This document shows, in pieces, positions 4,529-21,792 of a stretch of DNA of 35,526 nucleotides. Source of the DNA: an uncultured virus (IMG/VR IMGVR_UViG_3300035698_018388) (taxonomy: Duplodnaviria; Heunggongvirae; Uroviricota; Caudoviricetes); IMG/VR virus record IMGVR_UViG_3300035698_018388; one strand, given 5' to 3'. The position numbers and the translations under genes are program-made. Numbering within the stretch: position 1 is the first letter of the stretch; each line of letters begins with the position of its first letter. The notes below the pieces were generated by a model. That model searched no databases. It saw nothing but the letters and a program-made list of their open reading frames with translations, and had not been told where the DNA came from.

Positions 4529-5692
4529 ATGCCGAAAGCAATCGAAAAGAAAGATCTGGTAGGGTTTGCAAAGAAATTGAACAAAAGTGGTCTTGTTGAT
4601 GATGACGTTGCAGTAAAGGGTAGTTTTGATGACATCGCCGAGGACTTCATTCAGGCCATTGAAGACATTGACGACAATGGGAAAATCGACAAGGTAAAAA
4701 GCAACATCATTACTTTTTACGAAAAACTTTTAAAGGCTGTCGATACCAAAGATGATGATGATGATAAGGGTAAAGGCAAGAAAGAAAAGGGCGAGGCCAA
4801 ATCGTCTGATTTCGATGCTGATGCCCTAACCGACACGCTGGAGGACCTTGATTTCAAGGAAATCAAAAAGTACTGCAAGGCAAACGATTTGCCCAAACCG
4901 GACAAGGCCGAGTACGAGGATGATGAAGACGAAGTCATTGTAGCTATCGTTAAGGCAATGGCTGAAAAGGCTGCTTCCGATGCGGTTGATGACGACGATG
5001 ATGATGAAAAACCGGCTGCATTCGATGCTGACGCCCTGACCGAAACATTAGAAGACATGGACGATTTCAAGGAAATCAAAGCGTTTTGTAAGGAAAACGA
5101 TCTGGCCAAACCCAAAAAGTCCGATTATGAAGACGACGAGGATGAAGTGGTTGCGGCTATTGTTAAGGCAATGTCCAAAAAGGCCGACACCGGCAAGGAC
5201 AAGACCGATGACGATGACAAGGGAATCAAGCCTGATGAACTTCAGGCAGCCCTTGAAGATTGCGATTCTGCAAAAGATGCCAAGGCTCTTTTGAAAAAGT
5301 CCGGCGTTGATTTCAAAATCAAAAAGTCTGATTGGGATGACGACGAGGACGAAGTTATTGAAGCCATTGTCAAATCTTTGGGTAAGAAAGACAAGGGTAA
5401 AGGGAAAAATAAGGGCAAAGATAAGGACGATGCCAATTTGCCTAAAGGGATCAGAAATGGGACAGTCGTTGCAGTCGCCTACACCGCAATTAAGGAAAAC
5501 CCCGGGATCACATGGGGAAAACTGGCAACGATCTTTGCAAAGGCCAAAGGCAAAGATACAACCGCAGAAAAGGTCAAGGGTTCTGCATTTAGAACGGTAT
5601 CCAGAAAGGTTGCGGCGGTCGTTCCTGTTTGTGTTACCTTTTCAGGCAAGGATGAAATGAAAGCAACTTTTACTCTTTCGGAAGACGATTAA
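4529..5692 (+). CDS. Acidic/Lys-rich repeat protein, three ~50-aa helical repeats and possible C-terminal wHTH
   Basis: FDADALT.TLED..FKEIK..CK.NDL.KP.K..YEDDEDEV..AIVKAM twice plus a diverged third copy; strong SD; GC-richer codons; followed by terminator. Confidence 0.8.
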   Translation: MPKAIEKKDLVGFAKKLNKSGLVDDDVAVKGSFDDIAEDFIQAIEDIDDNGKIDKVKSNIITFYEKLLKAVDTKDDDDDKGKGKKEKGEAKSSDFDADALTDTLEDLDFKEIKKYCKANDLPKPDKAEYEDDEDEVIVAIVKAMAEKAASDAVDDDDDDEKPAAFDADALTETLEDMDDFKEIKAFCKENDLAKPKKSDYEDDEDEVVAAIVKAMSKKADTGKDKTDDDDKGIKPDELQAALEDCDSAKDAKALLKKSGVDFKIKKSDWDDDEDEVIEAIVKSLGKKDKGKGKNKGKDKDDANLPKGIRNGTVVAVAYTAIKENPGITWGKLATIFAKAKGKDTTAEKVKGSAFRTVSRKVAAVVPVCVTFSGKDEMKATFTLSEDD

Positions 5693-5730
5693 CAATTAGT
5701 TCATTATAGTTATTTATAAATAAGAAAGGC

Positions 5731-5770
5731 GGGTAGGAGGCAACATCGCCTCCTACCCCTCTTTTTTTTT
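5731..5770 (+). terminator. Rho-independent terminator
   Basis: 11-bp stem GGGTAGGAGGC (5731-5741) / GCCTCCTACCC (5748-5758), T9 at 5762-5770. Confidence 0.9.
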
Positions 5771-5810
5771 GGTTAATTTTCAGCCCCACTAAATTCTAAG
5801 GAGAATTAAG

Positions 5811-7836: not shown

Positions 7837-8249
7837 CAATAAGCAAATTTACAAAAACCAAATCACACAATGAATCTATAATTGAGCGCTTTGAAAAGCT
7901 TATTAAAAATTCAAGTAAAAGGGAAATAAGAAAAATAGAAATGGCGTTGTTAAAGCCACAACCAATCAAAAGATATACTGGCAAACAACCGGGGATATCA
8001 AGCTTTCACAAAAAGACAATTGAATTTACTTTTAGTAGTGAAAAATATGTAGAACAAATAGAAAAGCTTATCCGTATCAATAAACATATTCGATTTAACA
8101 CCCATGACACTCACATTTTTGAAGAATTTCTGGATATGATTTCTGCTGAAAAATTAATTATTGAAAACGGAAAATTGATTATGGCCTCTAATTATATTTT
8201 GAAATCTGATGGAGGCAAGCAAACAAAAATTACAAGGAGAAAAAAATGA
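7833..8249 (+). CDS. Hypothetical protein with C-terminal KITRRKK
   Basis: ATGA-coupled on both sides. Confidence 0.7.
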   Translation: MTISKFTKTKSHNESIIERFEKLIKNSSKREIRKIEMALLKPQPIKRYTGKQPGISSFHKKTIEFTFSSEKYVEQIEKLIRINKHIRFNTHDTHIFEEFLDMISAEKLIIENGKLIMASNYILKSDGGKQTKITRRKK

Positions 8250-9658
8250 GCTTGCGTGATGAAATATTTGATGAAGGAAGACGTTTTGTTCTGGAAAACA
8301 AAGGATTAAAACTTGATGATAAAGGTAGACAATATCTAAGCCCAAGAATATCTTCTGAATTTATGGACTGTAGCATGCCGTTAACTTTTGATCAATACTC
8401 TCATTGTAGTCTTGGTTGCATTTACTGTTTTGCCTATTTCTTCAAGTCTTGCAACCAAACATTTTCAAGTAAACTACATACCGTAAATCATACGGCTTTA
8501 ATTGATACAATTCATGGGGAACCAAACTCGGCAAGAAATAAAATAATGTACGAACACTTTTTCAAAAAGAAGTTTTTGTTTCATTGGGGCGGAATGGCAG
8601 ATCCATTTTGTAACTTTGAAAAAAGCAATGGTATTGGATACCAGATTGTAAAGGCTCTTGCCGAAGAAAATTATCCTACATTGTTTTCATTTAAGGGAAG
8701 CGCAATTTTCAAACCCAACTTCCAAAACCTATTCGGCGATTATTCCAAACAAAAAAACTTTGCTTTTCAAGTCAGCATAATTGCACCGACAGACAAACAA
8801 AGCAAGGAAGTTGAAATTGGTGTTCCTGTTACTTCAAGAAGAATTGAAGCAATTAGAATGCTTTCTCAAATGGGTTATTATACCATCCTAAGATTGCGAC
8901 CCTATATAATCGGAATAACAAATGAAGGCATTGATGATCTTTTACATAAATGCCTTGAGGCCGGTATAAGGGCTGTCAGTATGGAATTCTTCGCAATGGA
9001 TGCAAGATCAAGTGTTGGTATGAGAAAAAGATATGAGTGGTTGTCAAAACTCATTGGTGTTAAAAGTTTACAAAAGTATTTTAGGGCTTTAAGCCCATCT
9101 GAACGAGGTGGCTATATGAGATTGAATCGCTTAGTTAAAGAAAAGTATGTCAAAACAGTCTACAAATTTTGCCAAGATAATAATCTTGTTTTCGCTTGTA
9201 GTGATCCTGATTTCAAAGAACTAAATACCTCTGGCAGTTGTTGTGGCATGCCAGATAAATATCCAGCAAATCCATTACTTGAAAATTGGACAAGAGGCCA
9301 AATGACATACATGATAAAAGAAGCAAGAAAAAAACACCACATGCATGGAACACAAGCAAAAATAAAATTTGATTCTGTTTACCATCCAAATACAGATACG
9401 TATTTGAATGAAGTCGAACTTGGTCAAGATCATGTTATGGTTTCTGACAGAACCCAAGCGCAAAGACAAGGAATAACATATTTAAAAATCGCAAAGGAAA
9501 TATGGAATAATCTTAGATCACCGTCAAACCCAAGAAATTACTTTCATGGAAAGGTAATGCCCATTACTATAGATGGGGATGGAAATTTTATTTATAAATA
9601 TATTGAAGATGAATATGAAGAAAAATGGAAATCAGAAGGATTAGATTTGACAAGATAA
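8246..9658 (+). CDS. Radical SAM enzyme (SplB/DNA-repair-like subgroup)
   Basis: CSLGCIYC; GGMADPF; EIGVP..SRRIEAIR.L; LRLRPYIIG; late CCG. Confidence 0.85.
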   Translation: MSLRDEIFDEGRRFVLENKGLKLDDKGRQYLSPRISSEFMDCSMPLTFDQYSHCSLGCIYCFAYFFKSCNQTFSSKLHTVNHTALIDTIHGEPNSARNKIMYEHFFKKKFLFHWGGMADPFCNFEKSNGIGYQIVKALAEENYPTLFSFKGSAIFKPNFQNLFGDYSKQKNFAFQVSIIAPTDKQSKEVEIGVPVTSRRIEAIRMLSQMGYYTILRLRPYIIGITNEGIDDLLHKCLEAGIRAVSMEFFAMDARSSVGMRKRYEWLSKLIGVKSLQKYFRALSPSERGGYMRLNRLVKEKYVKTVYKFCQDNNLVFACSDPDFKELNTSGSCCGMPDKYPANPLLENWTRGQMTYMIKEARKKHHMHGTQAKIKFDSVYHPNTDTYLNEVELGQDHVMVSDRTQAQRQGITYLKIAKEIWNNLRSPSNPRNYFHGKVMPITIDGDGNFIYKYIEDEYEEKWKSEGLDLTR

Positions 9659-12061: not shown

Positions 12062-12253
12062 ATGGCATTCGTTATTACGTGTCCCTATTGCAATCACAAG
12101 GAGACCATAAGAAATACAAAACATAGATGGGTATTTCTCCAAATTGGAAAAACAAAATGTGTCGATTGCCATAAAGAGATAAAAATAAATGATAGAACAT
12201 TGAAAACAATGCAAGTAATCGGAAGCGGTAAAATCACAAGGAGGAAAAAATGA
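12062..12253 (+). CDS. Small Zn-ribbon protein with C-terminal KITRRKK
   Basis: CPYC...CVDC; SD GGAG. Confidence 0.7.
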   Translation: MAFVITCPYCNHKETIRNTKHRWVFLQIGKTKCVDCHKEIKINDRTLKTMQVIGSGKITRRKK

Positions 12254-12681
12254 AAGAATCAGTTGAAACGAAAAACCGTTTATTTTTTGATCGTCATTTT
12301 TACTTGTATGCAAAAGGCTGGTACGAAAGAACAGATGTTTTGCAAGACTTAAAAAAAATTGTCGCTGACCGTTGTGGACGCGGAATTGAAGCTATTGGTT
12401 TTGGAAGTATCTTCTCTATTTTGATAAAGCTGGTTTATTCCCATATTGGAAACGAATATAGATTTATTGAATTTGTAGAAAATCTTCTCCCGGAACAAAG
12501 ATGGAAAGTAAAAACCTCCTTTAATAAAGAAAGCACCTTTGAAGAAATAATGTTGAATAATTGTCTTTCTGTATTATCAAGGCAAAAGGTAACAGATATT
12601 CCTTTTGCTCTTGGCGAGCCTGATTGGGACATATTGCCAAAACCAGCTTCAAAAAAAATTAAAGAAATGACCTTAAAATAA
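12250..12681 (+). CDS. Hypothetical protein
   Basis: ATGA-coupled, SD AGGAGG. Confidence 0.7.
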   Translation: MKESVETKNRLFFDRHFYLYAKGWYERTDVLQDLKKIVADRCGRGIEAIGFGSIFSILIKLVYSHIGNEYRFIEFVENLLPEQRWKVKTSFNKESTFEEIMLNNCLSVLSRQKVTDIPFALGEPDWDILPKPASKKIKEMTLK

Positions 12682-12697
12682 GAAGGAGTAAATAATA

Positions 12698-15600
12698 ATG
12701 TCATTCTGCCATTTACACGTTCATGATGAATACTCTCAACTTGATGGAATGGGAACGGCTAAGGAGTATGTTGCCGCAGCAAAAGAAAATGGCTTTAAAT
12801 ATCTTGGATTAACTAACCACGGAAACATAGATAGCTTAATAAAATTTCAAAGGGAATGCGAAGCCGGTGGCATTACTCCAGTTCTTGGTTGTGAAGCATA
12901 TATCGTTGACGACATTGCAAAAAAGAAAACAGAAAAGCGGCATCACATTTGTCTCTTTGTAAAAAATCAAAGAGGATGGAGAAATCTCACAACGTTAATG
13001 ACCTTTGCAAATATTGAAGGGTTTTACTACCGACCAATTATAGATTATGGAACACTCCTCAAGCATTGCGAAGGACTTGTTATATCAACAGCATGTGCAG
13101 GAACATTTTTGCACCACAAAAACGGTATAGACCTATTTGAAAAATTAAACAAAAAAATAGGAAGTGATTTATATCTTGAAGTAATGCCGCACGATATTAA
13201 AGTGCAATACCCAACAAATAAACTTGTTAAAAAACTATCCAAAAAATATGGCAACAAAATAATTGCAACAAACGATTGCCATTATGTTTTAAGGAGTGAT
13301 CATAAAGTTCAAGATGTACTCCTTGCAATACAAAGACAGGTTAAATGGAACGATCCCAAACGATTTAGTTTCGGATTCAAAGGATTGCATTTAAGAACCG
13401 AAAAGGAAATGATTAGAGCATTTAAGAAAATAGGAGAAGATGATTATCAAGAATGGTTGGACAACACGATTGAAGTTGCTAAAAAGTGTTCTGATTTCAA
13501 AATAAAGAAAAGAACCGTTAGATTGCCAGAACCAAAAATAAATAATGTTATTTTAGATACCAAAGGAAAAGAGTCTAATTTCTTATGGGCTCTTATCTAC
13601 AGCGGATATGAATATTTATTTGGTATTAAAAAGAATCTTAAAGAGAATAAAAAATATTATCGAAGGGCAAAACGAGAATTTGAACTCCTTCAGAAAAAAG
13701 GGTTTATTCATTATCTCTTAATTGTTTGGGAATTAATTGATTGGTGCGAAAAAAATAATATAATAATTGGACCGGGACGTGGTAGTGTTGGTGGTTCTTT
13801 AATTGCCTACTTAATTGGCATCACCCAAGTTGATCCAATTAAATATGGCCTTTATTTTGAAAGATTTGTATCTGAAGATCGAGTTGATTTGCCAGATATA
13901 GATATTGATTTTGATAGAGAAAAAAGATATTTGGTGGTAAAACATCTTGAAGAACTATATGGGGAGGATAACGTTTGTGCGGTTAGTTCTTTTAATCGAA
14001 TGAAAAGTAGAGCCGCAATTGGAGAAGTTGGAAAGGTATTTGGAGTTCCTGATTATGAATTAAAGGCATTCTCAAAATTAATTGATTACAAAGAAGAAGA
14101 CGCTCTTAAAACAGCATTAGATACCTATCCAGAAGGGCAAGCATTAAAAGACAATTATCCCTTTGTTGTTAAGGCAGCATTACGACTTGAAGGTCAAATT
14201 CGGAATTACGGAAAACACGCAGCCGCAATTGTCGTTTCTAAAAGGCCAATTGCAAAAGGCGGGCGTTGTAATCTTATAAGAAGAAATAAAACAACATTAA
14301 TAAATTGGGGAAAAGAAGATACAGAGTTTATGGGATTAATGAAATTTGATTTATTAAGTCTCAGTCTTCTTTCAATTTATGATGGAACAAAAAAAGCAAT
14401 AAAAGAAAATCACGGTATCGATATTGACTTCAAAAAAATACCACTTGATGATAAAAAAGTTTTGAAAAATATTAGTGATGGGAATAATGTTGGAGTATTT
14501 CAGATAGGCACATGGGCGACCAACAGTCTTATCCAAGAAATGCATGGTGTTCGTTGCTTTGACGATATTGCTGCCGCCATTGCGCTTGTTAGACCCGGTC
14601 CTATGCAATCTGGCATGACCGAACAGTACATTGAACGGAGACAAGTTGGCGAATGGGAACAGACCCATAAGATATACGATGAAATCACAGAAGAAACAAA
14701 TGGAGTACTTGTTTATCAGGAACAGGTGATGGCCGTTATAAGCAAGATGGCAGGACTTCCATATTCAACAGCAGATCAGATAAGAAAGATTATTGGAAAG
14801 AAAAGAGATCCCAAAGAATTTGAAACGTATAGAAAACAATTTCTGGATGGTTGTATAAAACAAAAAACATTTTCTAAAAAGGAAGCAAAAGAATTTTGGG
14901 AAGGATTATTAAAGTGGGCAAAATATGGTTTTGGAAAAGCCCATTCTATTGAATATGCTTTACTTGGATACTGGTGCGCTTTTCTAAAACTCTACTACCC
15001 ATTAGAGTTTATATGTGCAAATTTGACCTACGGTTCAGATGCAAAGAAAACAGAACTTGTCGAAGAAATATATGATCTTGGTTTAAAAATAGAATTGCCA
15101 AAAGTAGGAATAAGTGAAGCTGAAAAATGGGTTACTAAATCTGATAGAGTGTTTATTCCATTTGCTGAAATCAAAGGCGTCGGCCCGGTATTGGCAAGAG
15201 AAGCAACAGCAGAAACGAATAGTAATGCTGGACTTAAAAGATTCTATAATCCAAAAGGGAAAAGCAAGATACAGCAGCATCCCGGAAAACTCGGGAAAAT
15301 ACTCCAGTTGATTGGTGCATATGGTTCTGACGAAATAGAAATAACAAAAGAGATTAGTGATTTATTCGATTTTAGAATTGAAGGCAATAATTCAAAGATA
15401 TATAAAAACTTATGGAAGGTTCTTATAAAAGGAGCAAAAAATAAAGGTTTGCCAATCGTTCGTGAAGAAGGTCTCGTAAACGAAAAGAATTTAAAGGAAT
15501 TAGTAACCGGAGATATTGAAAAGCTTCGTTTATTACAAGAATATAATGCCAAAATAATTAAAAGGAAATCTTTCAGGCCAAAGCGTGGAAGATTCTTAGA

Positions 15601-16192
15601 CGAATTAAAATCATGTAATGAATGCGAATTAAGAGAGGAGTGTACTTCTCCCGTTCCCCCAAGTTCTGGAAAACTTAATGTCATAATCGCTGGTGAAGCA
15701 CCGGGTAAAGATGAAGATGAAAAGGGAGTTTGCTTTGTTGGTCGTACCGGTAATGATATCCTATGGCCCGAACTTAAAAAGTATGGATTTGAACGATCAT
15801 CTTTTCATGTAACAAATATAGACAAATGCTTTCCAAAGAAAAGTAGAAAGCCGTCACCAAAGCAGATACAGATTTGTGCGAATAAATTCTTTAAAAAGGA
15901 AGTTAAACAAATAAGAGCAAAAATAATTTTAGCCTTTGGAAATACGAATTTATTTTTGTTTACTGGAAACAAAGGTGGCATTACAGATTGGAATGGAAAA
16001 ATAATGTGGAACGAAGAATATGCTGCATGGATTTTCTTTTGTTTGCATCCTGCATCAGTACTCCATAATCCAGATAACAAAATACCGTTTAAAAAATCAA
16101 TAAAACAATTTGCAAAATATGTTAATGAAATAAAAGAAGAGAAGCAATTAAAGACGACAAAGCATTTTGATGATGACGACATCCCATTTTAA
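12698..16192 (+). CDS. dnaE: DNA polymerase III alpha (family C) fused to C-terminal family-4 uracil-DNA glycosylase
   Basis: PHP HLHVH..YS.LDG, TNHG, TNDCHY; GRGS; PDIDID; KFDLL; RPGP; YQEQVM; YGFGKAHS; IKGVG. UDG domain (~15596-16140): CNEC, GEAPG, FVG, KCFP, HPAS. Confidence 0.95.
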   Translation: MSFCHLHVHDEYSQLDGMGTAKEYVAAAKENGFKYLGLTNHGNIDSLIKFQRECEAGGITPVLGCEAYIVDDIAKKKTEKRHHICLFVKNQRGWRNLTTLMTFANIEGFYYRPIIDYGTLLKHCEGLVISTACAGTFLHHKNGIDLFEKLNKKIGSDLYLEVMPHDIKVQYPTNKLVKKLSKKYGNKIIATNDCHYVLRSDHKVQDVLLAIQRQVKWNDPKRFSFGFKGLHLRTEKEMIRAFKKIGEDDYQEWLDNTIEVAKKCSDFKIKKRTVRLPEPKINNVILDTKGKESNFLWALIYSGYEYLFGIKKNLKENKKYYRRAKREFELLQKKGFIHYLLIVWELIDWCEKNNIIIGPGRGSVGGSLIAYLIGITQVDPIKYGLYFERFVSEDRVDLPDIDIDFDREKRYLVVKHLEELYGEDNVCAVSSFNRMKSRAAIGEVGKVFGVPDYELKAFSKLIDYKEEDALKTALDTYPEGQALKDNYPFVVKAALRLEGQIRNYGKHAAAIVVSKRPIAKGGRCNLIRRNKTTLINWGKEDTEFMGLMKFDLLSLSLLSIYDGTKKAIKENHGIDIDFKKIPLDDKKVLKNISDGNNVGVFQIGTWATNSLIQEMHGVRCFDDIAAAIALVRPGPMQSGMTEQYIERRQVGEWEQTHKIYDEITEETNGVLVYQEQVMAVISKMAGLPYSTADQIRKIIGKKRDPKEFETYRKQFLDGCIKQKTFSKKEAKEFWEGLLKWAKYGFGKAHSIEYALLGYWCAFLKLYYPLEFICANLTYGSDAKKTELVEEIYDLGLKIELPKVGISEAEKWVTKSDRVFIPFAEIKGVGPVLAREATAETNSNAGLKRFYNPKGKSKIQQHPGKLGKILQLIGAYGSDEIEITKEISDLFDFRIEGNNSKIYKNLWKVLIKGAKNKGLPIVREEGLVNEKNLKELVTGDIEKLRLLQEYNAKIIKRKSFRPKRGRFLDELKSCNECELREECTSPVPPSSGKLNVIIAGEAPGKDEDEKGVCFVGRTGNDILWPELKKYGFERSSFHVTNIDKCFPKKSRKPSPKQIQICANKFFKKEVKQIRAKIILAFGNTNLFLFTGNKGGITDWNGKIMWNEEYAAWIFFCLHPASVLHNPDNKIPFKKSIKQFAKYVNEIKEEKQLKTTKHFDDDDIPF

Positions 16193-16200
16193 GGATAATT

Positions 16201-16225
16201 AAAAATTTCAAAACCGTGTTATAAT
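16201..16225 (+). promoter_or_regulatory. Putative promoter, second copy of the 4430-4454 motif
   Basis: AAAAATttCAAAAccgtGTTATAAT, TATAAT at 16220-16225. Confidence 0.55.
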
Positions 16226-16243
16226 GTATATATGGAGGAAAAA

Positions 16244-16447
16244 ATTAAATTCTTTAAGAACCGTTCGAGGTGCTCCCATGTTGGTGCCAACCGGGTTCGA
16301 TCGTTTCCCTGCCGCTAATTTCATCATCGCCAAAGCGAAGCGGCCTTTTACCGGGATCAAAGTGTTCCGGTGCCAACCGGGTTCGGGAGAGAAGGAGCAT
16401 TCCCCATTTACCACCGACATGCTCGTGCGGTTCTTAAAGAATTTAAT
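16244..16447 (+). ncRNA. Candidate structured ncRNA or 5' leader
   Basis: Perfect 20-bp terminal inverted repeat, nested stems with G-U pairs, 17-nt direct repeat, potential pseudoknot; GC-rich island after a promoter motif. Confidence 0.6.
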
Positions 16448-16467
16448 AAAAGCCAAAAGGAGTCAAA

Positions 16468-16953
16468 ATGCAATATAGAGAAGACCTGAATATTAACAAA
16501 TTCAATTTGGACGAGGAGTTGATTCGGCAACCACAACATTTTTTAGATTGGGCTTTGGCTTGGAATAACGCAGCAGATCAAAGAGAAAAAGCAAAAAGCC
16601 GATTTGAATTAATCAAAGCAGAAACGGAATCTAACATAAGAAAGCATCCTGATGATTATGATATCCCTTCTGGTAAGGCAACAGAACCGGCAATCAAATC
16701 AGAAGTATTAAAACATAGTCGAGTTAGAAAGGCACAACGAAAATATTTAAAAGCATTGAAAAATGAACGGGTATTGGCAGATGTCAAAACGTCATTCAGA
16801 CAGAGAAAATCAATGCTTGAAAAATTAGTTGACCTGAACTTGCAAGTCCATTTTTCAGATCCGAAGATACCAACAACTCAAAAGGAATCTATTTATCAGC
16901 ACAGAAAAAGAAAAATAACTCGGAAACTAAGGAAGTCATTCGATGATCGCTAA
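16468..16953 (+). CDS. Coiled-coil protein, possible UvsY-like recombination mediator
   Basis: Helical, ends ..SFRQRKSML..L; lies upstream of SSB and RecA. Confidence 0.5.
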   Translation: MQYREDLNINKFNLDEELIRQPQHFLDWALAWNNAADQREKAKSRFELIKAETESNIRKHPDDYDIPSGKATEPAIKSEVLKHSRVRKAQRKYLKALKNERVLADVKTSFRQRKSMLEKLVDLNLQVHFSDPKIPTTQKESIYQHRKRKITRKLRKSFDDR

Positions 16954-17158
16954 CCTACTCATAGAAATAATAAAAGATATTTTTATTTATGCTTCAGCAT
17001 TGATTGTGCTACTTGTTTTGATTTATGTTGCCTCAAGACTTGTGGCTCTTGGTGTTGCAAAAAGTATAATTAAGGCAATAAATGATAACGCTGCTGAAAA
17101 GGCGGCAAAACAGGGAGGAAATGAAAATGGCAAGAGACAAGAGTCGGAGAAAATTTGA
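16943..17158 (+). CDS. Small membrane protein
   Basis: Hydrophobic IFIYASALIVLLVLIYVA. Confidence 0.6.
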   Translation: MIANLLIEIIKDIFIYASALIVLLVLIYVASRLVALGVAKSIIKAINDNAAEKAAKQGGNENGKRQESEKI

Positions 17159-18284
17159 TAGTAAGAAGTTAAAAGAAAGAACCAAAGAATCTCAAAAACG
17201 GGCGAAGGCCGGTGGCAAAAATATCTTAGATAACAGCAAGGATCTTCCGAAAATTGTTTTTCGAGAAGGCAAACATACCTTTGATATTATTCCTTACATT
17301 ACCGGAAAGAACGACAGCGAGCCTAACGAATGGGCCTACACTTTTGAATACTACATGCATCGAAATATCGGCACCGCAAAAATTCCTGTCATTTGTCCAC
17401 AAGCAACATTTGGGGAGCCTTGTCCCATATGCGAACATCAACAGAAACTAAGAGACAAAGGCGACGAATCGTATAAAGACTACTGGCCAAAAAGAAGAAA
17501 CCTTTATAATATCATTTGCTATGACCGGGGAGAACAAGAAAAGGGAATCCAACTTCTGGATGTAAGTTGGCATTATATGGAAAAGTATTTAGCAACAATT
17601 TCAGAAAAAACAAACCGGAAAACCGGAAAACTGGAAACTATCAGTTTTGCCGATACCGACAAAAGAAAAGGCCGCTCTATTGAATTTACATTAGAAGCCG
17701 CAAAATCTGAAAATGACTACCCTGATTGGCGTGGACATAACTTTGATCGACGAGATTATGATATTAAAGACAGTATTCTTGAAAAAGCACTTGTCCTTGA
17801 TAAATGTGTTGTCCTTATGAGTTATGATGAACTGGAAGAACTTCATTTTAATGGGCCGAAGGGTAAAAATAATTCAGACGATGATGACAAACCAGAATCC
17901 GTTTCCGACGATCTTGATGATCTGAAAGACGACCTTGAAGACATTGATGATTTTAAAGATCTGAAGGAGTTCATAAAGAATAATGATCTTGACATCAAAG
18001 TCAAAAAGGCAGATTGGAAAGATGACGAAGACGATGCAAAAGATGAAGTCCGGGTTGTCCTTGAAAAGAAATTTGATGGAAATGCTGCCGACGACGATGA
18101 TGATGATGATGATGACAAAAAAGATAAACATACTGAAAAAGAAATTGAAAAAATGTCATTTAAGAAATTAAAGAAACTTATCAAAGATGAAGATCTTGAT
18201 ATTGATATGGACGATTATGAAAAAGACGATGACGATGATCTTGAAGACCTTCGGGAAGAAGTAGTTGACAAACTGGATCTGTAA
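17127..18284 (+). CDS. gp32-like single-stranded DNA-binding protein with acidic repeat tail
   Basis: YYMH, CPQATFGEPCPICE Zn motif, PKRRNLYNI, very acidic C-terminus; SD GGAGG at 17114-17118 favours ATG 17127. Confidence 0.75.
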   Translation: MARDKSRRKFDSKKLKERTKESQKRAKAGGKNILDNSKDLPKIVFREGKHTFDIIPYITGKNDSEPNEWAYTFEYYMHRNIGTAKIPVICPQATFGEPCPICEHQQKLRDKGDESYKDYWPKRRNLYNIICYDRGEQEKGIQLLDVSWHYMEKYLATISEKTNRKTGKLETISFADTDKRKGRSIEFTLEAAKSENDYPDWRGHNFDRRDYDIKDSILEKALVLDKCVVLMSYDELEELHFNGPKGKNNSDDDDKPESVSDDLDDLKDDLEDIDDFKDLKEFIKNNDLDIKVKKADWKDDEDDAKDEVRVVLEKKFDGNAADDDDDDDDDKKDKHTEKEIEKMSFKKLKKLIKDEDLDIDMDDYEKDDDDDLEDLREEVVDKLDL

Positions 18285-18379: not shown

Positions 18380-19480
18380 ATGGCAATATCAAGAAGAAAT
18401 AAAACGGAAAAACTTGTTTCTGAAATCAAACGGGAAATTAAAGAACCAATAAAAGAAAGCCCTGTTGAATTCTTAGGCTCTGGTGGAACACACTTAAATC
18501 TTGCCCTCTCAGGCACTTCAGGCGGCGGTTGGGGTCGTGGGAGAATTCATAATATAGTTGGTGACGGTTCAAGTGGAAAGACCGCTCTGGCTCTTGAGGA
18601 GGCTTTCTGGTTTTATAAATATATTAAAGAAATACGATCAAGAATATTCCCAAGAGTAAAGTCTTTTGAAATCTGTTATGATAACGGTGAAGGAGTAATG
18701 GATTTTCCTGTTTCGGATATGTATGGCACAGAATTTTACAAGGCAATAAATTGGGATCGAAGTCCTCACTTTGAAGCAATGTGCCGCAGGTATTATAGGA
18801 AAACAAGAAAGTTAAAGAAGGGGCAAGCCCTCTTATATATAATTGACTCTTGGGATTCATTCAAATCTGCAAAAAGCATGGATCTGTTTTTGGAAAGTGT
18901 TGAAAGCGATACGGAGTTAAAGGGCGATTATGATATGGCCCTACAAAAATATGCAAGCGGTAAATTCTTTCCAAACGTCTGCAACATACTTGAAGACAAT
19001 GGTGCGGATTCAACTCTTTGCATTATCTCGCAGGTCAGGAGCAAAATAAATGCTCTGTTTGGAAAGAAACAATATCGTGCCGGTGGTAAAGCTCTTGATT
19101 TTTATACACATCAGGTAGCATGGCTTCGTGAAATTGAAAAAATGAGAAAGAAGAAATTTGGTGAAATGAAAGTTTATGGTATTAGATCAGAGGTCGCAGT
19201 TGATAGAAATAAACTTGCCAAACCATTCAGGGTCGGCCGGTTTACAATCCTTTATGATTATGGTCTTGACGATACTTCTTCAATTCTTGATTATGTTTAT
19301 GGTCCTAAAAAAAGTAAGTTCAATTTTAGAGGAGTAAAATTTAAAGATAAATTATCCTTTGTAAAACATATTGAACGGAACAAATTACAACCGCAATTAA
19401 TTAAAAAAGCCCAACGGAAATGGGACAAGGTTGAAGATGCCTTTACAGAGGAAATAAATGAAAGACCAAAAAGATACTAA
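18380..19480 (+). CDS. recA: RecA/UvsX-like recombinase
   Basis: LNLALSG, GRI, Walker A GDGSSGKT, IIDSWD, ISQVR, GGKALDFY, NK.AKPF. Confidence 0.9.
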   Translation: MAISRRNKTEKLVSEIKREIKEPIKESPVEFLGSGGTHLNLALSGTSGGGWGRGRIHNIVGDGSSGKTALALEEAFWFYKYIKEIRSRIFPRVKSFEICYDNGEGVMDFPVSDMYGTEFYKAINWDRSPHFEAMCRRYYRKTRKLKKGQALLYIIDSWDSFKSAKSMDLFLESVESDTELKGDYDMALQKYASGKFFPNVCNILEDNGADSTLCIISQVRSKINALFGKKQYRAGGKALDFYTHQVAWLREIEKMRKKKFGEMKVYGIRSEVAVDRNKLAKPFRVGRFTILYDYGLDDTSSILDYVYGPKKSKFNFRGVKFKDKLSFVKHIERNKLQPQLIKKAQRKWDKVEDAFTEEINERPKRY

Positions 19481-20560: not shown

Positions 20561-21030
20561 AAATACTCGCAATTGATCAGGCAACTAAAACCGGATATGC
20601 TCACAACTGTTTTAAAAAAATAAATTCAGGGGTTGCCGATTTTAAACCGAGGCGTGGTGATTCTCCCGGAATGAGGTTTATTAATTTTAAAGCATGGTTA
20701 TCTGAACTTGTAAAAAGTACAAAGCCAGAACTTATTATATATGAGCAGGAGCATCACCGTGGAGGCGCACCAACAGCTATTGCTCTTGGTCTTATTGCAA
20801 TGATTAGTGTTGTTGCGACTGAAAATAATTGCGATATTACTTCGGCCCATACTGGCAAGGTTAAAAAGTGGGCAACCGGAAACGGAAGGGCGTCAAAGGA
20901 AGAAATGGTAGCAGCAGCAAAAAAACTTGGATTTAAACCAGAAGATGATAATGAAGCAGATGCTCTTTTAATTTTACTCTGGTATCTTGATCAATTCAAA
21001 CCCATTAAAATAACGAGGCGGAAGAAATGA
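20557..21030 (+). CDS. ruvC: RuvC-like Holliday junction resolvase
   Basis: ILAIDQ..KTG, IIYE, VKKWATGNGRASKEEM, DDNEADA. Confidence 0.85.
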   Translation: MKILAIDQATKTGYAHNCFKKINSGVADFKPRRGDSPGMRFINFKAWLSELVKSTKPELIIYEQEHHRGGAPTAIALGLIAMISVVATENNCDITSAHTGKVKKWATGNGRASKEEMVAAAKKLGFKPEDDNEADALLILLWYLDQFKPIKITRRKK

Positions 21031-21260
21031 GACAATTTGAAAATACAATTTTTATGGGAGCCGGCCAATCTACAGAAAGCGAATGCTATAAATTAATATG
21101 TAGATTACAAGAAGGTCTTAAAATTTTAGGTGGATTGCAACAACCTGATCATCCCGATTCAATAAATGAAGAAATAAAATGCAAACAATGGAGGAGAATG
21201 GCAGGTATAGAACTTGAAGATATTAAAAAAGACATTTGTTGCGCTTTGGGTAAAAAATGA
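21027..21260 (+). CDS. Hypothetical protein
   Basis: ATGA-coupled on both sides. Confidence 0.55.
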   Translation: MRQFENTIFMGAGQSTESECYKLICRLQEGLKILGGLQQPDHPDSINEEIKCKQWRRMAGIELEDIKKDICCALGKK

Positions 21261-21523
21261 AGTTAATCTTTTACCCTAAAACAAAACGAGAAGCCCGTAA
21301 ACATCGTTATCACATACATCGGTGGAATACTAATGGTTGTGTATATGACCGCAAACGATGTGCCTGTGAAGTCGAATACGCAATGTGTGAGGAGATAATT
21401 AAAAACCAATGTCTCCACCAAAACGGCTTTGGCTATAAAGAACTATATTGTAAAGCACATCAGCATGGAATTCAAATAACCAGAAGGAAAAAGAAATCAA
21501 AAATCACAAGGAGGAAGAAATGA
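21257..21523 (+). CDS. Cys/His-rich hypothetical protein with tandem ITRRKK tail
   Basis: ATGA-coupled; ends QITRRKKKSKITRRKK. Confidence 0.65.
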   Translation: MKLIFYPKTKREARKHRYHIHRWNTNGCVYDRKRCACEVEYAMCEEIIKNQCLHQNGFGYKELYCKAHQHGIQITRRKKKSKITRRKK

Positions 21524-21792
21524 AACTTAAAGATTTTGACGCACCCAAAGCAAAAAGTTTAGATGACTTATTAGAACCGTTTTTAAAAGAAGAAAACTTT
21601 GAAGTTGTTTGTAGCTCTTGTGGGAAAATACATAATGCAACAAGAGAAACCTTCTATACCGTTTATGGCAATATATGTGTCGGTCTTAAAGGAGGAGTTG
21701 TCGGTAATAATTTTAAAGACAACGGGATTCTTGGACGACTATCTTTCTTTTGTCGAAACAATCCAGAATGCAAAAGGATGAAATTCAAATGA
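21520..21792 (+). CDS. Hypothetical Zn-finger-like protein
   Basis: CSSC...C..C; SD AGGAGG. Confidence 0.65.
   Translation: MKLKDFDAPKAKSLDDLLEPFLKEENFEVVCSSCGKIHNATRETFYTVYGNICVGLKGGVVGNNFKDNGILGRLSFFCRNNPECKRMKFK

Follow-up and report, generated by a model that had tools for sequence, protein, structure and literature searches.

The DNA analysed here is IMG/VR record IMGVR_UViG_3300035698_018388, from an uncultured virus of the Caudoviricetes, and the window refers to this full stretch of 35,526 nucleotides (nt), to which all coordinates belong. At 16244-16447, upstream of a gene for a UvsY-like protein, lies a 204-nt element that reads as a lineage-specific insertion of foreign-looking DNA. 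Its apparent rich structure comes down to a terminal inverted repeat (TIR) around an unremarkable core, and this is the main contribution of the present analysis. What is non-random in the element is the terminal inverted repeat together with a 17-nt direct repeat, and nothing else. The interpretation that we favour, to which we give about an even chance, is an orphan, non-autonomous, TIR-bounded insertion resembling a miniature inverted-repeat transposable element (MITE), co-transcribed as a hairpin in the 5' untranslated region (UTR) and likely a target of RNase III. The element belongs to no described family and is, so far, a single-copy TIR-bounded miniature insertion in an unusual place. 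A new RNA class is not shown by these data.

The comparison with related phages reveals a filled and an empty form of the site. Searching IMG/VR with the 161-aminoacid protein encoded downstream returned 15 loci, two of which are the window's own phage (including an identical fragment of 6035 bp). The other 13 records represent nine distinct phages, with L012 to L017, identical at the uvsY-like locus, counted as one phage. The element is absent upstream of the uvsY-like gene in all 13 of these non-self records. The upstream gene, for a polymerase with a uracil-DNA glycosylase (UDG) domain, is kept in two of the nine phages, L011 and L012-L017, where the product of the downstream gene has 58% and 43% aminoacid identity to that of the window, respectively. 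Promoter and gene order are conserved in both, with a distance from the -10 box to the ATG of 29 nt (L011) and 58 nt (L012-L017), against 242 nt in the window. The intergenic regions were compared by long-gap pairwise alignment, and the surplus of the window between -10 and ATG matches the 204-nt element. It is because of these lengths in syntenic relatives that we regard the element as lineage-specific. The insertion event is undated, and the relatives are distant, as their identities indicate. No copy of the element was found in five whole related records, which add up to 244 kb and include one that is complete with terminal repeats.

In terms of composition, the element holds the highest GC of the window. 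Over 150 nt it reaches a maximum of 0.55-0.56, about four standard deviations above the mean (mean 0.348, standard deviation 0.052). No GC skew was found in the element.

An earlier note on this DNA, made from its letters alone, had described a highly structured RNA candidate with a pseudoknot and a duplicated 17-nt motif. All the pairings, inner hairpins and repeats that it listed are present where it placed them. The two ends form a perfect 20-bp closing stem, or terminal inverted repeat, with 16244-16263 pairing to 16428-16447 (20/20). Further inwards, CGAG pairs with CTCG (16266-16269 / 16422-16425) and CATGTTGGTG with CACCGACATG (16277-16286 / 16412-16421), the latter with one G-U. Aligned as DNA, the terminal arms give 20/20 matches, two mismatches, 4/4 matches, a 7-nt indel and 9/10 matches, and inverted symmetry is absent past about 43 nt from the ends. 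The left TIR (16244-16286) consists of the perfect 20 nt, TT, CGAG, the 7-nt extra GTGCTCC and CATGTTGGTG, and the right TIR (16412-16447) of CACCGACATG, CTCG, TG and the perfect 20-nt arm, each delimited by alignment to the opposite end. Between them lies a GC-rich core (16287-16411) that has no inverted symmetry. The 20-nt arms have 25% GC, and the core, here taken as everything between them (16264-16427), has 56%. Each arm holds its own near-palindrome, TTCTT-T-AAGAA, and TA and TTAA are placed symmetrically within the palindromic ends. The element measures 204 bp, within the 50-800 bp range of MITEs, and its TIR is above the 10-15 bp minimum for them.

The second non-random feature is the direct repeat. 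As the earlier note had it, GGTGCCAACCGGGTTCG is found exactly at 16283-16299 and again at 16369-16385 on the + strand. These are two copies where 0.03 are expected by chance. The copies are 86 bp apart, or about eight helical turns. Their similarity reaches upstream to TGTT[CC]GGTGCCAACCGGGTTCG, giving about 23 nt if an indel is allowed; ACCGGGATC at 16350-16358 is a third, partial copy. In the minimum free energy fold, both copies have GGUG closing a helix and CCAACC unpaired.

On either side of the element the sequence AAAA is found (16240-16243 to the left, 16448-16451 to the right). They are candidate copies of a 4-bp target-site duplication (2-10 bp in MITEs), read from the sequence and weak in this A-rich spacer, with the TA or TTAA of the ends as indistinguishable alternatives.

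Folding locates the stability of the element at its ends. The whole element on the + strand has an energy of -84.4 kcal/mol, against -55.7 +/- 4.3 for shuffled sequences (z = -6.65). The - strand gives -77.2 kcal/mol (z = -4.45), and single-stranded DNA (ssDNA) gives z = -5.93. The interior alone (16287-16411, 125 nt) gives z = -1.19 on the + strand, where 25 of 200 shuffles were as good, and z = +0.18 on the - strand. Since the interior folded by itself gives no signal, it is the terminal inverted repeat that accounts for the excess stability, and the terminal helices P1-P3 alone reach -39.8 kcal/mol, even when closing a 125-nt loop. The earlier claim of a highly structured non-coding RNA (ncRNA) is not supported, with the signal confined to the terminal helix. 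Likewise, the inner hairpins and the pseudoknot are what chance provides in a sequence of this length with 56% GC. The 7-nt complementarity between bulge and hairpin loop, from which a kissing loop had been proposed, does exist, and as a duplex it is worth -10.1 kcal/mol. When the interior was dinucleotide-shuffled 5000 times, 13% of the shuffles contained some 7-nt complement to the bulge GUGCUCC, and the match is therefore no evidence of a pseudoknot.

The element sits in a gap of 275 nt between the polymerase gene and the gene of the 161-aminoacid protein (16468-16953, + strand), the first after the element. Within this gap, an extended -10 motif CGTGTTATAAT is found at 16215-16225 on the + strand. 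The same motif, CGTGnTATAAT, occupies the equivalent place after the polymerase stop codon in the syntenic relatives L011 and L012-L017, and it occurs once in the 35.5-kb window. This conservation and the fit to the consensus point to a promoter function. A simple sigma-70 scan did not call this promoter, with no -35 present. The TATAAT reported in the earlier note is present (16220-16225), with a spacing to the element of 18 nt.

From the position of the -10, the element would start about 12 nt past the transcription start, and it ends 9 nt before the Shine-Dalgarno (SD) sequence of the uvsY-like gene. The predicted leader begins with a single-stranded 5' segment AUGGAGGAAAAA (16232-16243, + strand), which carries an orphan SD-like GGAGG ahead of the hairpin and has a mean unpaired probability of 0.83. 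In the predicted fold of the leader (16232-16500), the 20-nt arms are paired with a probability of 0.99. The SD AAAGGAG of the uvsY-like gene (16456-16462, + strand) and its AUG have unpaired probabilities of 0.84 and 0.86. No terminator-like site was found on the + strand in 15800-17200, and therefore none separates the element from the 161-aminoacid gene. The element is almost certainly part of the leader of the uvsY-like / gp32-like / UvsX-like operon.

The assignment of the 161-aminoacid gene comes from a profile and from a predicted fold. A profile of 10 homologues matches chains of T4 UvsY (4zws, 4zwt and 4zwq) with E between 0.018 and 0.023. The AlphaFold (AF2) model has a pLDDT of 85.4, and in a Foldseek search with this model the 12 best-ranked rows among those listed (ranks 1-10, 12 and 26) are T4 UvsY chains, with target-normalised TM up to 0.81 and E of 0.04-0.69. 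These two lines, each weak by E-value, agree and support a UvsY-like recombination mediator. The protein has no match in Pfam, and its PHROGs, 1069 and 2058, have no known function. As a separate observation, these two PHROGs may be UvsY-like mediators.

Downstream of this gene lie a gp32-like single-stranded DNA-binding protein (SSB) gene (17082-18284) and a RecA/UvsX-like gene (18380-19480), and the UvsY-SSB-RecA operon recognised previously is supported, with the UvsY-like gene now confirmed by profile and fold. Of the earlier proposal of a novel ncRNA or an operon leader, the leader position is supported and the novel structured ncRNA with a pseudoknot is not.

In the mechanism that we propose for a MITE-like insertion, a foreign and GC-richer element would have landed in the A-rich spacer that separates the promoter from the ribosome binding site of the uvsY-like gene. 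Because of its position between promoter and gene, it would be co-transcribed with the operon, on the + strand and within the 5' UTR of the uvsY-like, gp32-like and UvsX-like genes. The ends of this RNA would form a helix of about 34 bp, with a perfect stretch of 20 bp, around a core of about 125 nt with no structure beyond chance. A perfect 20-bp helix of double-stranded RNA is a natural substrate of RNase III, and a cut there would probably cleave off the leader, so that the coding part loses the 5' triphosphate end and the orphan GGAGG. The hairpin is predicted to leave SD and AUG free, and its effect on the messenger would be exerted in cis and could either raise or lower expression.

The evidence for this interpretation is the filled site against the empty one, the foreign composition, and a TIR at the exact borders of an inserted non-coding segment. 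The fold signal is also seen on both strands and in ssDNA, as expected of an inverted repeat at DNA level. Bacterial MITEs are described in Delihas 2008 (PMC2229807) as elements of about 100-200 bp with TIRs, 5'-TA-3' near the termini and target duplications. According to the same paper, their transcripts form long stem-loops by pairing of the 5' end with the 3' end, and many of them display open reading frames (ORFs). Four of the six frames of the element are largely open, which fits this last description. MITEs in phage genomes exist and are rare, according to PMC11602168.

Several results weigh against a MITE. Apart from identical copies of the same phage, no second copy or relative of the element was found by blastn or by exact words in the collections searched (for metagenome contigs, among the matches listed), and since a repeat family has several copies by definition, the defining feature of a MITE is not seen here. 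No transposase was found among the genes of the window, and no insertion sequence (IS) with matching ends in the scans. In so A-rich a site the target duplication stays ambiguous, being possible but unprovable. The discontinuity between AT-rich ends (25% GC) and a core of 56% GC is unexplained. A simple MITE does not account for the internal direct repeat (17 nt exact, about 23 nt if an indel is allowed), and this repeat could mark a binding site. Five runs share an identical element and show no empty-site variant, which is uninformative on mobility. It is the missing multi-copy property and the unexplained 17-nt repeat that keep our confidence from rising above even. The earlier note had tied a MITE to multiple dispersed copies with target duplications: the TIR, the filled and empty sites and the foreign composition fit such an element, and multiple dispersed copies were not found.

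The search for relatives covered RNA families, nucleotide collections and proteins. With Rfam 15 at the gathering threshold, the whole window gave 0 matches, and at E<=10 over 16100-16600 only six junk hits (C/D-box, rRNA) of at most 13 bits were returned. This was a check proposed in the earlier note, and no known RNA family was matched. ARAGORN found no tRNA or tmRNA. Readings as a retron, a CRISPR-like element, attC, REP/PATE, Y RNA or 6S were rejected, with no reverse transcriptase, Cas, integrase or Rsr in the window, or no Rfam score.

Blastn in distant mode against 50,697 phage and 72,556 plasmid records gave no match. The collections were further scanned with exact words of 16-18 nt and with gapped patterns of 11 or 14 nt at each end. 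The 17-mer was found at three loci in viral contigs, two of them chance matches in GC-rich coding DNA. In metagenome contigs it was found at 119 loci at least, and among those listed two are identical copies of the present locus and 117 match over no more than 29 nt. An 18-mer of the TIR hit 38 loci in the genome contigs of 185,579 species representatives, all single matches of at most 27 nt in unrelated taxa. A 16-mer of the TIR hit 19 loci in viral contigs, 18 of them by chance, for example where an ORF in L189 codes for its N terminus. No inverted partner was found within 600-1200 nt of any non-self match of these TIR 16- and 18-mers. An 18-mer of the hairpin matched five viral loci, four by chance in GC-rich DNA.

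The gapped patterns for the TIR pair returned only the element itself. The gapped pattern for the repeat pair returned five unrelated loci (24-nt tandem repeats, a collagen-like coding repeat and a coding region). As a side observation, a giant-virus metagenome-assembled genome (IMGVR_UViG_GVMAG-M-3300013094-1_000001, loci L207/L211) has arrays of 24-nt tandem repeats containing CCAACCGGGTTTGG at its contig ends, unrelated to the element. In the 35.5-kb window, no second copy of the 17-nt repeat pair, the TIR or the element was found elsewhere.

At the protein level, translations of the two fully open frames (+ and -) gave no candidates among 5.8 billion protein clusters, the + frame gave 0 matches among 1.84 billion protein representatives, and Pfam at E<=10 gave no match to any of the four open frames. 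A resemblance of 'VPTGF ... RP..G.K' to a DnaB motif was rejected, there being no protein or Pfam similarity in the frames.

The element itself is present in five salt-lake metagenome runs from 2017-2018, two of which may be the source of the present DNA; no RNA run is listed among those that contain it. It is identical in the window, in the 6035-bp IMG/VR contig, in a metagenome contig of 16,998 bp and in the Logan contigs of four runs (X1, X3, X4 and X5), which bridge both junctions. Because these contigs are identical and both junctions are bridged, the element is not an assembly artefact. No variants, skip joints or empty-site form were found in X1, X3, X4 and X5. Separately, a contig of 251 nt in run X4 matches 16427-16460 (the right arm and 13 nt of flank) at 30 of 34 letters, with unlike sequence to either side; the match could have arisen by chance in coding DNA rich in AT, or it could be a related site in another genome.

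Among the other explanations, the one that survives best, which we consider rather unlikely, is that this lineage acquired a structured, cis-acting RNA of an undescribed family, which is under selection and became fixed in the leader of the recombination operon. It might serve as a two-site protein-binding leader, an antiterminator of the put kind, or a leader gated by RNase III; put of HK022 is reportedly a promoter-proximal processive antiterminator. The element has the sense orientation about 12 nt past the predicted start of a conserved promoter, and SD and AUG stay accessible in the predicted fold. It is, however, absent in the 13 other records that have the gene, and no terminator follows it to define a discrete RNA. 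The exact 17-nt repeat, rarely expected by chance (0.03), with GGUG at a helix end and CCAACC unpaired in both copies, speaks for such an RNA, but neither the structure of the interior nor the pseudoknot exceeds chance. Folding favours the + strand by 7 kcal/mol, and the sole mismatch of P3 is a G-U on that strand. The preference for the + strand that had been drawn from G-U pairs comes down to this one G-U and the energy difference, and is a weak argument. The sequence is unchanged across runs of two years, but Rfam gives no match even at E<=10, and with no homologue found, no covariation supports the helices. Functional RNAs that are stable usually avoid RNase III, and a perfect helix of 20 bp is unusual among them. 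A more specific form of this explanation, a horizontally acquired RNA module fixed by the salt-lake lineage and founding an RNA class with no relatives in databases, is somewhat less probable again. Its closing helix would present the two 17-nt sites, at junctions of single strand and helix, to a protein of phage or host, as a decoy or for autoregulation like that of the gp32 leader, or the sites would modify RNA polymerase in antitermination of the put kind.

Improbable in our view is a site acting at DNA level, with the 17-bp repeats as iterons or operators in a cruciform-capable palindrome, for protein binding or replication. The direct repeats are about eight helical turns apart, each arm has its near-palindrome TTCTT-T-AAGAA, and the ssDNA fold has z = -5.93. 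The element also lies within a replication/recombination module and adjoins the uvsY-like gene, a position at a uvsY promoter that recalls ori(uvsY) of T4, where a promoter transcript primes replication. However, relatives with the same module lack the element, which is therefore not a conserved origin. No GC skew favours an R-loop, no binding protein was identified, and there are only two copies of the repeat. Lastly, a scrap of foreign gene or DNA captured by illegitimate recombination, with incidental features, is very improbable: the foreign composition, the four largely open frames and a 17-mer encoding a VPTGF-like peptide, which is also found in the coding region of the chance match L006, would suit it, but a perfect 20-bp inverted repeat exactly at both borders cannot be incidental, and no open frame tested has Pfam or protein similarity.

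The surrounding window has 34.9% GC, and all its large ORFs are on the + strand. It reads as a replication and recombination module, with a primase, an O-like initiator, a DnaB-like helicase and a clamp loader. The polymerase gene ahead of the element (12698-16192) is of DnaE type, with PHP, Pol III alpha NTPase and finger domains and a C-terminal family-4-like UDG domain. The domain of the UDG superfamily covers residues 992-1144 (E 3.5e-21), and the fusion is also found in L011 and L012. Further genes encode a 5'-3' exonuclease and a RuvC-like resolvase.

Some observations concern other genes of the window. The gp32-like SSB, of 400 aminoacids, has a very long acidic and repeat-rich C-terminal half with runs of D/E. 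Its DNA has repeats of the GATGATGA type in common with the ORF at 4529-5692 (387 aminoacids, no PHROG match), which contains at least three copies of a repeat of about 210 nt (70 aminoacids) at 73-78% identity. This ORF is followed at 5712-5777 by a GC-rich hairpin, GGCGGGTAGGAGGC / GCCTCCTACCCC, and then a T-run, which looks like an intrinsic terminator. A start region of 26 nt, AAAATCACAAGGAGGAAaAAATGA, with a strong SD, is found before several genes (8226-8251, 12230-12255, 21007-21032 and 21500-21525). These start regions suggest a host that uses strong SD sequences, which would be low-GC and Firmicute-like, and not Bacteroidota.

As for what the element means, if the MITE-like interpretation is true, it is a rare transposon-like miniature element surviving in the replication module of a lytic-type phage. 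It would then be a natural experiment on how phages tolerate or exploit insertions that reshape the leader of recombination genes. A donor MITE family in a host genome, if found, would name the host. If the RNA alternative is true, the element is a new phage regulatory RNA. The value is modest, since this is one orphan sequence, known from metagenomes, that comparison with relatives does not support.

The closest known systems to a MITE-like insertion of this kind are Correia/NEMIS of Neisseria, ERIC/IRU of enterobacteria and RUP of pneumococcus. These are likewise small (100-200 bp), non-coding and TIR-bounded with TA near the termini, and the transcripts of Correia, ERIC and RUP fold by pairing of their 5' and 3' ends, as predicted for the element. 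The TIRs of Correia are about 24 bp, and MITE insertion next to genes alters the processing of messengers, by RNase III for Correia and by RNase E for ERIC, as described in PMC2229807 and PMC2649163. These families are multi-copy with clear target duplications, and some have a cognate IS, whereas the element is single-copy in everything searched. It also differs from them in its GC-rich core, AT-rich ends and internal 17-nt repeat, in having no sequence similarity to them, and in its place in the replication module of a virulent-looking phage.

The viral MITEs (vMITEs) are likewise TIR-bounded, non-autonomous and located within phage genomes. As stated in PMC11602168, few occur in viruses, and there are usually counterparts to them in cellular genomes of the host genus. 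In contrast, the scan of 185,579 species representatives with the 18-mer of the TIR found no cellular counterpart of the element, which therefore names no host and cannot be assigned to a MITE cluster.

Another comparison is with the PeSL cassettes of T4-type phages, a promoter and stem-loop at gene boundaries that are tied to indels between close relatives, according to PMC2839356 and PMC4122927. PeSLs recur at many places in one genome, where they serve as sites of recombination. Unlike them, the promoter and the TIR of the element each occur once in 35.5 kb, and the promoter is ancestral while the hairpin is new and much larger.

Finally, the R sites of T7 and the leader of lambda N are phage leaders that host RNase III processes, which changes the stability or translation of the genes downstream, and they are conserved parts of their phages with tested cleavage. 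The element is lineage-specific and its cleavage is a prediction only, but it shares with both systems a long, near-perfect helix in the leader of a phage messenger, where RNase III is predicted to cut.

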